Shown: positions 6,755 to 8,682 of the stretch, one piece after another
Layout: each line of letters starts with the position of its first letter
Numbering within the stretch: position 1 is the stretch's first letter
From: Candidatus Iainarchaeum sp.
GTDB lineage: Archaea > Iainarchaeota > Iainarchaeia > Iainarchaeales > JACQJH01
Direction: 5' to 3'
NCBI GenBank assembly: GCA_016205145.1
Contig: JACQJH010000002.1
Coordinates: forward strand, 90,001 to 122,000
Length of the DNA: 32,000 nt
The notes under the pieces: generated by a model
Seen by the model: the letters and a program-made list of their open reading frames with translations, nothing else
Databases searched by the model: none
What the model was told of the DNA's origin: nothing
Made by a program: the position numbers and the translations under genes

Positions 6755-7825
6755 TTATCCGGGCAATGCCCCGGATGTTCCGCCGGAAGAAGGGCCGGTT
6801 CCAACAACCTTCTTGTAGATGAACTCAACCATTTCCCTCGGCACGAGCGGCCCCAAAAACGCGGAGAACGGCCCCGGCATGAAATTGACTTCTATTACCT
6901 TCAGGCCGTCCGGGGTTTCAATCAGGTCAACCGCGCAGATTTCCATGCGCATCACCTTCGCGGACCTCAGCGCAATCAATTTCATTTCATCCGTCGCCTC
7001 GATCAGGGTTGCCTTGCCGCCCCTTGAAACGTTCGCCCTCCACTCGCCCTGCCTGCCGGTCCTGCGCACCGCCAGAACCTTTTCCCCGAAAACATAGCAT
7101 CTTATGTCCGTGTTCCTGTCGGGCACAAACTCCTGCGTCGACAAAAACTCGTCAAGCATGTGCATCGTGTCAAGAATCGAACCGAACTGCGTGGAATCGT
7201 TCACGAGCACAACGCCTTTGCCGGCAAAACCGGAAATCTTTTTCACCACAACCGGAAAATCCGAAACCTTTTTCTTCGCGGTTTCAGGCGAAATGAACAG
7301 GCCGCTGCCGACAACCGGAATGCCGGCGTCGCACAATTCCTTTATAGTGTAATACTTGTGGTTTGAAATCAGGAAGCCGCGCACTGAAACCGGCGAATAC
7401 ATTCCGGAGTCCTCGACAAGCCGCAGTATGGCTTCCGCCAGCACGAAGTCCGTGGAGCTCAGCCTCGGATAGCACGCGTCAAACGAGAAGAGGTCACGGC
7501 CCCTGAACCGCATTTCGACCTTGCCGTTGTTGAGGGAAACCCTGATTTTCGTGACCGGCACGAACAGCACTTCCCCGAAAATCCTTTTGGCTTCTTCCCT
7601 GAGGTCGCGCACAGTGCGCTTGACGTGGTACCTTGAGCCGATTATGAGTAGGCTGGGCCTGCGGTTTCCCGCCTGCAAATCCGGTTTGCCATTGCCATGC
7701 TTGACGCTTTTCCTAATCACGCCCTGCACTCTGCCGCCGGCTGCCTTTCGGCCCTTTTTCTTGCCGCCGGCTTTTGGGCCAATGCGCGCCTTGCCTTTTG
7801 CGATGCCGGCTTTTTTGGAAATCAT
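6755..7825 (-). CDS. RimK/LysX-family ATP-grasp ligase, apparently catalytic, with a 58-residue Lys/Gly/Arg-rich N-terminal tail
   Basis: I place the start at ATG 7825-7823, which overlaps the upstream stop as ATGA. The track ORF extends to a TTG at 8122, which I reject. RimK-like blocks seen: VVKKISGFAGKGVVLV, DIRCYVFG, WRANVSRGG, CAVDLIE and VIEVNFMPG. Confidence 0.8.
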   Translation of the reverse strand: MISKKAGIAKGKARIGPKAGGKKKGRKAAGGRVQGVIRKSVKHGNGKPDLQAGNRRPSLLIIGSRYHVKRTVRDLREEAKRIFGEVLFVPVTKIRVSLNNGKVEMRFRGRDLFSFDACYPRLSSTDFVLAEAILRLVEDSGMYSPVSVRGFLISNHKYYTIKELCDAGIPVVGSGLFISPETAKKKVSDFPVVVKKISGFAGKGVVLVNDSTQFGSILDTMHMLDEFLSTQEFVPDRNTDIRCYVFGEKVLAVRRTGRQGEWRANVSRGGKATLIEATDEMKLIALRSAKVMRMEICAVDLIETPDGLKVIEVNFMPGPFSAFLGPLVPREMVEFIYKKVVGTGPSSGGTSGALPG

Positions 7826-8682
7826 TCGCCCACCCTTTTTTCCGAGGCGTTCTTGAAAAAGAATTCCGCGCACTCGGCAAACAGGTCGACGCCAAGGGTG
7901 TCGGATAACGCCAAAAACTTTACTTCGGGGGAAACCCTTGTTACAAGGCCGTTGGAAATCTTGACTGTCGCAACCTTGCAGCCGCACGCCTTTGCCGCCC
8001 GGATAGCAATCTTGCGCTCGCGTTCCGGCAGGTCGAGAGGCTTTCCCCTGCGCGGCAATTCGAGTTTGCCGTTTTTCCACTTGCGCTGGACGCAGAAAAC
8101 CTTTTTGCCTATGACAACGCAATGGTTGACTGGCGTGAACAAAAAATCCATCAGGACTGCGGCATCAATGCCCGAATCCGCGGAAAAGCTTGTCATCTGC
8201 TTGTCCAGCTCCTTCTTGGTTTCGATGACAAGGCTCTGCGTTTTTTTCTGGCCGCTGTAAGCCTCGAAAATCGCCGGAAAAGAAAGCCTCCTGCCGGTAT
8301 GGCTCAGATCCGCCTTTGCCGCGCCGAAAACCGTTTTTGGCAGTGGAACTTTCGCCTTGTCAAGCACGACCAGCTGGAACAGTTCATTGGAATTCAGGTA
8401 ATACGCGCCGGGCACGACCTGCGAAAAAAGCCTTTTGCGCGAAATCTCGTCAAGCAGAGGCTCGACGAACGGCGCGAGCTTGAGCTTTGCGTTCAAAAAA
8501 ACCGCGGAAAAATCGTCGATGTTCACCGGCCCCGACAAAAGGGTTTTCCTGCCATTGCCCGAAAAAATCGAAAAATCTGACAGCGATGCAACCTTCGCTG
8601 ACTCGAAGCCGGCTGCAACAAAAGCCTTCTTGAGCCGCGGCATGGCCGCAGTCTTTTCGGTCGAAAGGATAAGCGCTTTCAT
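7822..8682 (-). CDS. RimK-like ATP-grasp paralog with a degenerate active site (putative pseudoenzyme subunit)
   Basis: 286 aa with an ATG start. It has the same architecture as the downstream gene, but the equivalent blocks read IFEAYSGQKKTQSLVIE, NHCVVIG, LELPRRGK, ATVKIS and TRVSPEV. This is a hand alignment only. Confidence 0.6.
   Translation of the reverse strand: MKALILSTEKTAAMPRLKKAFVAAGFESAKVASLSDFSIFSGNGRKTLLSGPVNIDDFSAVFLNAKLKLAPFVEPLLDEISRKRLFSQVVPGAYYLNSNELFQLVVLDKAKVPLPKTVFGAAKADLSHTGRRLSFPAIFEAYSGQKKTQSLVIETKKELDKQMTSFSADSGIDAAVLMDFLFTPVNHCVVIGKKVFCVQRKWKNGKLELPRRGKPLDLPERERKIAIRAAKACGCKVATVKISNGLVTRVSPEVKFLALSDTLGVDLFAECAEFFFKNASEKRVGE

Follow-up and report, generated by a model that had tools for sequence, protein, structure and literature searches.

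A coupled RimK-family ligase and its non-catalytic paralog in Iainarchaeota, with a LysW-like zinc-ribbon protein as candidate substrate

The two genes described here lie on the minus strand of a 32,000-nucleotide stretch of Candidatus Iainarchaeum sp. (assembly GCA_016205145.1, contig JACQJH010000002.1, positions 90,001 to 122,000), which is referred to as the window and whose own positions are used throughout. Gene B (6755-7825 (-); 356 amino acids, aa, from the ATG at 7825) encodes a RimK-family ATP-grasp ligase with its catalytic residues all intact, and gene A (7822-8682 (-); an open reading frame, ORF, of 286 aa), the upstream member of the pair, encodes a RimK paralog that is predicted to be non-catalytic (a pseudo-ATP-grasp protein). 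It is probable that the two products act jointly, B as the catalytic subunit and A as a paralog without catalysis. As far as the alignments tell, the dead paralogs form one family, which is conserved in three phyla of the DPANN group. With somewhat better than even confidence, it is further proposed that the pair is a heteromeric RimK-type ligase extending an acidic protein tail, which peptidases would trim in related genomes.

Coupling of the Two Genes

The junction of A and B is an ATGA stop/start overlap (7822-7825 (-)), in which the ATG at 7825-7823 lies over the TGA at 7824-7822; both the ORF list and the sequence bear out the overlap given in a preliminary description of this DNA. The junction reads ...GGGTGGGCGAATGATTTCC..., with a GGGTGGG Shine-Dalgarno-like element (7829-7835 (-)) located 3 nt 5' of the B ATG, within the end of gene A. 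The window and the related loci L004/L005 and L008/L009 have this element, the coupled start and the ATGA junction in identical form.

For the comparison with relatives, 80 genome loci were fetched with a B profile and then scanned with an A-family hidden Markov model (HMM) for A-type ORFs. All relatives are metagenome-assembled genomes, and their ORFs were called mechanically. Word-indexed searches for A homologs gave 5 and then 30 proteins, and the true spread of the family was seen only through the B-fetched loci. The B homologs come nearly all from "Candidatus Iainarchaeum"/Diapherotrites archaea (DPANN group). Wherever the upstream sequence of an Iainarchaeal locus was long enough, an A-type ORF lies directly 5' of B, as it does in the seven Aenigmatarchaeota loci (7/7), and the same A-B order is present in the three Nanohaloarchaeota loci fetched (L090 and L091, which are near-duplicates, and L092). 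A B-frame start codon is found at the A stop in 63/63 loci analysed (Iainarchaeota and Aenigmatarchaeota); the genes overlap by 4 nt (NTGA) in 47 of them and by 8 nt in 8, and in the other 8 they abut within -1 to +4 nt. Because it recurs in all 63 loci analysed, the arrangement is more than chance. The pair and its overlap, whose conservation in related genomes the preliminary description had singled out for checking, are maintained, the genes being neighbours in every relative examined and the NTGA form occurring in 47/63 loci. The possibility that the two are neighbours in no relative is decisively set aside, with A upstream of B throughout.

Family Placement and Catalytic Residues of B

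In public annotations B is called "RimK family alpha-L-glutamate ligase" or "ribosomal protein S6--L-glutamate ligase", and A is called "hypothetical", "ATP-grasp" or even "RimK family". The score of B lies above the family cut-offs of Pfam RimK PF08443 (E 1.4e-29, 103.5 bits; cut-off 21) and of NCBIfam TIGR00768 rimK_fam (154.5 bits; cut-off 143.4). The more specific profiles gave lower values, with 109.8 bits for the S6--L-glutamate ligase RimK equivalog NF007764 (cut-off 331), 109.9 bits for LysX TIGR02144 (cut-off 275.6), 109.3 bits for MptN NF040720 (cut-off 350) and 48.6 bits for CofF TIGR04443 (cut-off 300). An assignment of B as LysX, MptN, CofF or S6-RimK proper was rejected, all four scores being far under the equivalog cut-offs. 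Its nearest solved relatives are the RimK proteins of Pseudomonas and E. coli, at 101-118 bits, and LysX/ArgX follow at 38-64 bits.

Active-site columns were read from a MAFFT alignment of 136 sequences (64 A-type, 71 B-type and E. coli RimK), with HMMER alignments alongside; the E. coli RimK sequence used matches PDB alignments over residues 17-290. In E. coli RimK numbering, K100, K141, G145/G148/G150, Q177, D187, R189, R211, N213, D248 and N262 show no variation across the 71 members of the B family, and E260 is kept in 70/71; B of the window has the whole catalytic set. The HMMER and MAFFT alignments agree on the RimK hallmarks that the preliminary description had assigned by hand to the downstream protein, and the RimK, LysX, CofF and MptN profiles together with the active-site columns place B in the RimK family with an intact catalytic set. 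No gene for S6, the substrate of RimK proper with its C-terminal Glu-Glu, was found within the 32-kb window. Archaea are not known to have a bacterial-type ribosomal protein S6, and the label "S6-glutamate ligase" would then be wrong for B.

Fold, Selection and Lost Catalytic Residues of A

Gene A also encodes a recognisable member of the family, with 25.5 bits against PF08443 (cut-off 21), and scores below the cut-off of TIGR00768 (29.7 bits; cut-off 143.4). Compared with E. coli RimK, A of the window carries K141->E, G148->K, G150->Q, D187->V, R189->H, R211->L, N213->L, D248->K, E260->R and N262->S, and has E at the position of K100. Its Gly loop, its Asp/Arg and Arg/Asn motifs and its Mg ligands are all lost. 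The same holds for much of the A family: G148, G150 (Q in 51), D187, R189, N213 and N262 are each kept in 0/64 members, and R211 in 7/64. Position 248 is D in 28, K in 27 and R in 7, position 260 is E in 4 and D in 14, and position 100 is E in 52/64. K141 is kept in 58/64. In the B family, these positions are conserved in 71/71 sequences, save for E260 in 70/71. The residues that replace the catalytic positions in the A family differ between lineages and form no new conserved set.

The motif pairs that the preliminary description had aligned by hand, with the ATP-contacting Lys and the Mg2+ ligands of the upstream paralog replaced, were reproduced by HMMER and by MAFFT. An upstream paralog that keeps all nucleotide and Mg ligands is not what the profile alignment gave, with six positions at 0/64, and the view of one catalytic and one dead subunit is upheld by an A-type family that is without G148, G150, D187, R189, N213 and N262 in 64/64 members.

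The K141 site of A (residues 144-156; 8215-8253 (-)) has Glu in the window and in a 98% identical relative (P0001). Lys is found at this position in the next closest ortholog (L009), in the more distant P0002-P0005 and in the 58/64 A family members mentioned above. The exchange in A of the window is a very recent extra loss in an already degenerate site.

The AlphaFold2 (AF2) model of A has a predicted local distance difference test (pLDDT) score of 87.4 and a predicted template modelling (pTM) score of 0.85. Foldseek gave a template modelling (TM) score of 0.84 to the E. coli RimK-RpsF complex (5zk6) and of 0.81-0.83 to Pseudomonas RimK; overall, the model matches RimK structures at TM 0.81-0.85 over ~295 columns with 17-20% identity and has their three-domain fold. 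A is accordingly modelled as a complete, well-folded RimK-like protein. The RimK-family structures in the PDB that match B or the model of A (RimK, LysX, ArgX) were all deposited without a dead paralog.

The ratio of nonsynonymous to synonymous substitution rates (dN/dS) of A is 0.13 against L009 (dS 1.15) and 0.035 against L004, and the values for B are comparable (0.12 against L009, 0.18 against L004). A is under purifying selection and is not decaying. Within Iainarchaeota the mean pairwise identity is 0.38 for A and 0.52 for B, A being the faster evolving of the two.

A LysW-like Zinc-Ribbon Protein as Candidate Substrate

The plus strand of the window encodes, at 13017-13232, the candidate substrate of the A/B ligase, a LysW-like zinc-ribbon protein of 71 aa whose C-terminal tail is poly-acidic. 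Its sequence is MKKIRCPDC...NCPECNTEL...EMEDDDEPEEEEVPEESE, ending in ...VPEESE, and its C6, C9, C28 and C31 recur without exception in 22 family members. The NCBIfam LysW/ArgW profile NF041070 is its top match (28.7 bits, E 1e-6, full length); LysW/ArgW is also the best NCBIfam match for 22/22 zinc-ribbon members, and Pfam Zn_ribbon_LysW matches 14/22. The single-sequence AF2 model has a pLDDT of 80.9 (~88 in the globular part), and the top five Foldseek matches among 350,542 PDB chains are LysW proteins (Thermus, Sulfolobus with ArgX, Thermococcus), with TMt up to 0.84 and a probability of 0.93-1.0. The root-mean-square deviation (rmsd) is 1.4-2.0 A for four of them and 7.6 A over 64 columns for 3wwl. 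The model is that of a four-Cys zinc ribbon with a LysW fold.

An ortholog of the 71-aa protein occupies the syntenic position in L001, and an HMM built from two sequences found zinc-ribbon family members in 32 related loci, within ~6.3 kb of the A-B pair. The gene lies ~2 kb upstream of the pair, or 3.7-5.2 kb upstream past RibL and the tyrosyl-tRNA synthetase TyrRS (as in the window), or 4-6 kb downstream (AR10-type). The same HMM matches a genuine LysW (...EEDWGE) beside a LysX-like gene in Vulcanisaeta. The last residue of the 32 sequences is D in 21, E in 6, S in 4 and N in 1, and none has the EDWGE ending of LysW; the tails end in ...EDYDSD, ...DEDYS/N/D or ...EYFDD, with an aromatic residue within the last 8 positions in 28/32. 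The preliminary description had seen no partner of a known RimK-family system nearby and had left the substrate open, a view that gives way here to a LysW-like 71-aa protein linked to the pair in 32 loci. Neither the 32-kb window nor the recurrent neighbour clusters with Pfam-scanned representatives yielded a gene of the LysZ, LysY, LysJ or LysK type.

Gene Neighbourhood in Related Genomes

The neighbourhood was examined by clustering all ORFs of the loci and scanning the cluster representatives against Pfam. Typical Iainarchaeal loci consist of two divergent blocks, RimB-like -> GNAT -> membrane protein -> LysW-like zinc ribbon on one side and A -> B -> MATCAP -> M29-like on the other. The RimB-like retropepsin (PF05618, 30.6 bits; DTGA motif in 49/50 matches) is present in 49 loci, ~0.5 kb upstream and divergent. 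GNAT genes are found in 39 loci, MATCAP genes (PF08014, 153 bits; HExxxH in 32/34) in 34, LysW-like zinc-ribbon genes in 32 and M29-like peptidase genes in 16. The zinc-ribbon and RimB-like genes are on one strand in 29/29 loci having both. Directly 5' of the LysW-like gene, the window encodes a multi-pass membrane protein (11995-12702 (+)) with no Pfam match; as a conserved neighbour, a membrane protein of this kind adjoins the zinc-ribbon gene on the same strand in 32/34 loci.

A third ATP-grasp gene beside the pair was observed in L002 (522-1502) and L071 (10836-11807), of the YheCD/ATPgrasp_ST type and with a weak TTL match in L071, and in L092 (10730-11599) as a RimK-type paralog. An AstE/AspA-type (M14-like) deacylase is also encoded in L090 and L092.

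In AR10-type Iainarchaeota, Aenigmatarchaeota and Nanohaloarchaeota, a membrane protein with MscS-like and Peptidase_C39_2-like domains is encoded directly 5' of A; its C39-type domain is also phytochelatin-synthase-like. The gene of this MscS-C39 protein, of 520-530 aa (L067-L074 ~7556-9133; L090/L092 6410-8023), overlaps the start of A. In the seven Aenigmatarchaeota loci and in Nanohaloarchaeota L090 and L092, the 8-10 kb fetched yielded no zinc-ribbon gene. In the Aenigmatarchaeota, the MscS-C39 protein ends in 7/7 loci close to ...EEDEEGGLDEFIDDN (GGLDEFIDDN-like, with the variants ...NEFVDDS and ...DEFIDNN), and it ends in ...KLDEFTDAGE in L090 and ...EEDEPSDDN in L092. Of the AR10-type Iainarchaeota loci, 4/4 encode an MscS-C39 protein whose C-terminus is not acidic/aromatic in this way, and the zinc ribbon was found in 3/4. 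This complementarity between the zinc ribbon and an acidic membrane-protein tail, seen in few independent lineages, fits an acidic tail as the putative target of the pair.

The Basic N-Terminal Extension of B

B of the window begins with a 58-residue Lys/Gly/Arg extension, a hypervariable low-complexity segment encoded at 7652-7825 (-). A direct count of 12 K, 6 R, 12 G and 1 acidic residue confirmed the composition reported earlier, and the net charge is +17. Judged from the sequences, the extension is almost certainly translated from the ATG at 7825, which is much likelier than a start at internal GTG codons; translation is expected because the coupled start is conserved in 63/63 loci.

The distance from the start to the conserved "...PSLLIIGS" core is 58 residues in the window, 38 in L004/L005 (A 98% identical to that of the window) and 10 in L008/L009 (B ~83-85% identical), the differences being in-frame indels. 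The 10-aa extension of the 83-85% identical ortholog, MTEAQEKKPS, is not basic. Across the 63 loci, extensions are shorter than 10 aa in 42; of the 21 longer ones, 14 have a net charge of at least +3 and the rest are neutral or acidic, and that of the window is the second longest and the most basic. Conservation is limited to the first three residues and the RPS junction. A slipped-strand origin was rejected, as Tandem Repeats Finder gave no result at 7600-7850. The tail is accordingly not conserved, with 38 aa and 10 aa in close relatives; of the docking role that had been suggested for it, the existence of the tail probably stands, and an essential function is opposed by its hypervariable length and charge. 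It is read as a fast-evolving, presumably disordered appendage with a lineage tendency to Lys-richness, and not as essential. The C-terminal ~17 residues of B (6755-6815 (-), VVGTGPSSGGTSGALPG) are likewise of low complexity and wholly unlike those of the L004 ortholog (VAGHGTDLQAEH); because these residues differ completely, both ends of B are hypervariable.

Proposed Function and Alternative Explanations

In the proposed mechanism, A and B would constitute a RimK-type ATP-dependent carboxylate-amine ligase with B as the catalytic subunit. A would be an ancient duplicate of the same enzyme that lost catalysis but was retained as a partner, for structure or for handling the substrate; inside a RimK-like oligomer, it might keep the globular zinc ribbon in place, or it might make B more stable or more active. 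Translational coupling would make A and B in fixed proportion. A physical complex, the obligate heteromer of the preliminary description, is suggested indirectly by the coupling in 63/63 loci and by the purifying selection on A. The likeliest substrate would be the acidic C-terminal tail of the LysW-like protein (13017-13232), to whose C-terminus B may add amino acids, most plausibly L-glutamate, via an acyl-phosphate, as RimK does on S6. The basic extension of B may help to attract the acidic tail, yet close relatives can dispense with it. Experiments have shown RimB to be a protease that takes off the glutamates added by RimK, RimK and RimB together setting the tail length (PMC7343187; PMC11957051). 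By analogy, the RimB-like retropepsin and the MATCAP-type metallocarboxypeptidase found beside the pair in most relatives would trim the tail, resulting in a reversible tail-length switch. The lineage of the window has the ligase pair, the membrane protein and the LysW-like protein only, with neither peptidase within 32 kb. The identity of the substrate, the amino acid added and the reversibility are all proposed by analogy.

Several observations weigh against this proposal. K141, the ATP-contacting Lys, is kept in 58/64 A proteins (Glu in the window), and nucleotide binding by some A-family members is possible. The 71-aa protein scores under the curated cut-offs (28.7 against 75 bits for NF041070; 17.4 against 27 for PF21344), and the Foldseek E-values of its LysW matches, from a single-sequence model, are 0.02-0.3. 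A phmmer search of 1.84 billion representatives gave 55 relatives, mostly small zinc ribbons with acidic tails and none EDWGE-ended, and a direct sequence link to canonical LysW was rejected on this ground. In a PDB profile search, Dph3/Kti11 zinc fingers (E 0.003) outranked LysW (E 0.04-0.19); the LysW link therefore rests on the NCBIfam profile and the fold. In the window, the zinc-ribbon gene is 4.3 kb from the pair, on the opposite strand, with RibL, TyrRS, a Na/Pi transporter and the membrane protein in between, and it was not found within 10 kb in ~28/60 Iainarchaeal loci. Conserved neighbourhood inside one phylum may also partly reflect shared ancestry. By hmmsearch, RimB-like, GNAT, MATCAP and M29 genes are absent from the 32-kb window, and because of this the reversible part of the cycle is drawn from relatives only.

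Some of these observations would be accommodated if B were a RimK of the usual homo-oligomeric kind, either producing free poly-alpha-glutamate or glutamylating a small molecule or an unrelated protein, with A as a regulator or sensor (e.g., glutamate- or nucleotide-binding) and the LysW-like gene as a mere syntenic neighbour. One source describes the formation of free poly-alpha-glutamate by RimK in vitro (PMC10375531), and B matches no characterised equivalog; the absence of the zinc ribbon within 10 kb in about half of the loci, the housekeeping genes intervening in the window, K141 in 58/64 A proteins and the hinge Glu in most of them point the same way. This explanation is nevertheless regarded as unlikely, given that the coupling in 63/63 loci across phyla favours stoichiometric co-production over loose regulation, that the co-located RimB-like, MATCAP and M29 peptidases act on peptide or protein C-termini, that the zinc-ribbon and RimB-like genes form an operon-like block in 29/29 loci having both, and that the acidic tails switch carrier protein between lineages. 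It is improbable that the polybasic tail of B is the functional core, docking on nucleic acid or the ribosome or being needed for a polyacidic substrate: its net charge of +17 over 58 residues and the recurrence of Lys-rich extensions (14/21 tails of at least 10 aa with at least +3) are set against a 10-aa, non-basic tail in the 83-85% identical ortholog, 38 aa in a closer one, fewer than 10 aa in 42/63 loci, several long tails that are neutral or acidic, and sequence conservation confined to the first three residues and the RPS junction.

The LysW-like fold of the zinc ribbon, its best family match to LysW/ArgW and the membership of LysX and ArgX in the RimK family would also suit a true LysW/ArgW carrier, with B as a LysX/ArgX-like enzyme loading the gamma-carboxyl of the terminal Glu for the biosynthesis of lysine, arginine or another amine. 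Such a role is quite improbable: no LysZ/LysY/LysJ/LysK-type gene was found in the 32-kb window or the Pfam-scanned neighbour clusters, the EDWGE motif is absent and the last residue variable (D 21, E 6, S 4, N 1), the accompanying enzymes are peptidases, and B (109.9 bits against the LysX cut-off of 275.6) matches bacterial RimK (101-118 bits) more closely than LysX/ArgX (38-64). A might instead be a second active ligase with non-canonical residues, A and B adding two different residues in sequence, as its conservation, full length and purifying selection could imply, together with D248 in 28/64 and an acidic residue at 260 in 18/64 A proteins. With G148, G150, D187/R189, N213 and N262 kept in 0/64, substitutions that vary by lineage without a new conserved set, and K141 also missing from A of the window, an active A is highly improbable. 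The heteromeric ligase acting on an acidic tail is the reading retained in the following comparisons.

Comparison with Known Systems

The RimK-RimB(-RimA) system of E. coli and Pseudomonas carries out the C-terminal poly-glutamylation of ribosomal protein S6/RpsF. Like it, the pair described here includes a RimK-family ATP-grasp ligase (B), whose nearest solved relatives are the Pseudomonas and E. coli RimK proteins, has a RimB-like retropepsin (PF05618, DTGA) beside the ligase in relatives and has an acidic protein C-terminus as its presumed substrate. It differs in the score of B against the S6-Glu ligase equivalog (109.8 bits; cut-off 331), the coupled non-catalytic paralog, the LysW-like candidate substrate and the MATCAP gene in relatives; no RimA-type EAL protein was seen here, and the window is without a RimB-like gene.

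LysX and ArgX, of the RimK family, attach an amino acid to the LysW tail, and the PDB entries 3vpb and 5k2m (LysX/ArgX) are among the structure-search matches. The LysX/ArgX-LysW systems (Thermus, Sulfolobus, Thermococcus) share with the present one a RimK-family ligase and a small four-Cys zinc ribbon with an acidic tail, the ribbon superposing on LysW at 1.4-2.0 A. In contrast to them, the tail here is longer and poly-acidic, without EDWGE and with a variable last residue; LysZ/Y/J/K were not found in the window or the scanned neighbour clusters, B scores under the LysX cut-off, peptidases take the place of biosynthetic enzymes, and there is an extra dead paralog.

As in the tubulin tail cycle of eukaryotes (TTL/TTLL and the MATCAP detyrosinase), an ATP-grasp ligase occurs with a MATCAP-family protein (PF08014) in relatives, and the candidate tail is acidic, 28/32 of the zinc-ribbon sequences having an aromatic residue among their final 8 positions. 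However, B is RimK-type and not TTL-type, the substrate is unrelated to tubulin and the window has no MATCAP; the analogy is by gene association only. The Pseudomonas rloABC operon encodes a protein with seven transmembrane segments (7TM) and an inactive transglutaminase, an ATP-grasp protein and a retropepsin (PMC11957051). A comparable membrane protein with a papain-like Peptidase_C39_2 domain is encoded directly 5' of A-B in AR10-type Iainarchaeota, Aenigmatarchaeota and Nanohaloarchaeota, but its membrane domain is MscS-like with a C39-like domain instead of 7TM with transglutaminase, there is no signal-peptide retropepsin here, and the MscS-C39 gene is not in the window.

The literature search found no RimK pseudo-paralog, no combination of DUF1704/MATCAP with ATP-grasp and no RimK/LysW in DPANN, though an earlier in-silico mention is possible; nor is a link of the A-B pair to LysW-like, MATCAP and RimB genes in DPANN described in the papers found. 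A search focused on LysW gave only an unrelated mention of LysW, in a nanohaloarchaeal virus paper. The abbreviations of a genome map of haloarchaeal/nanohaloarchaeal viruses include a LysW carrier and a carboxylate-amine/thiol (ATP-grasp type) ligase (bioRxiv 10.1101/2025.02.15.638363); if both are on one genome, the pairing of a LysW-like protein with a ligase may be mobile in DPANN-associated viruses.

Other Features of the Window

The pair is flanked by housekeeping genes, with IMPDH (1880-3319), PurA (3519-4778) and AsnB on one side and a RibL-like cytidylyltransferase, TyrRS and a Na/Pi transporter on the other. AsnB, a glutamine-hydrolysing asparagine synthase-like protein of 609 aa (4805-6634 (-)), follows B after a 120-nt gap. 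It was rejected as an operon partner, since it follows B only in the window, L004, L008 and L009, PurA or MATCAP taking this place elsewhere, and it is treated as a local insertion. RibL, TyrRS and PurA were likewise rejected as functional partners; they are housekeeping genes present in only 16-24 loci and are regarded as synteny. The TyrRS ORF (8966-10243 (+)) and the RibL-like ORF (8779-9354 (-)) overlap by ~390 nt on opposite strands; the TyrRS domain begins at ORF residue 143 and the cytidylyltransferase domain at residue 56, so both proteins probably start inside these ORFs.

Purine genes cluster in the window. A 995-aa ORF (14667-18502 (-)) contains PurS, FGAR-AT linker and PurL (AIRS/AIRS_C) domains and is followed by a PurQ-type glutaminase ORF that overlaps its end. 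A Fic/DOC family protein of 320 aa (842-1804 (-); PF02661, 71.8 bits) adjoins IMPDH. Radical_SAM (PF04055), Memo (PF01875) and AMMECR1 (PF01871) are encoded by three consecutive, partly overlapping ORFs (27639-30134 (+)), which form the widely conserved AmmeMemoRadiSam triad. No tRNA genes and no Rfam matches were found in the window.

Significance

Tail ligation of the RimK/RimB and LysX/LysW type is already known; what appears to be new here is the coupled dead paralog and the LysW-like link. A coupled dead subunit across three phyla would be a new build for RimK-family enzymes and a clean case of pseudoenzyme partnering in prokaryotes. The LysW-like protein also provides a concrete candidate substrate for an enzyme labelled merely "RimK family alpha-L-glutamate ligase" or "S6-glutamate ligase". 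More tentatively, and with less than even confidence, the DPANN system could be a reversible protein-tail modification with a heteromeric writer, an acidic tail with an aromatic residue on a zinc ribbon, or on a membrane protein where the zinc ribbon is lacking, and MATCAP/RimB erasers, a prokaryotic counterpart of the tubulin code and a living intermediate between RimK/S6 and LysX/LysW. If this is true, a connection would emerge among S6 glutamylation, the LysW carrier and the tubulin tail cycle, which have until now been viewed as separate systems. To our knowledge, little regulation is known in genome-reduced symbiotic archaea, and such a tail cycle would place regulatory protein modification in these organisms.

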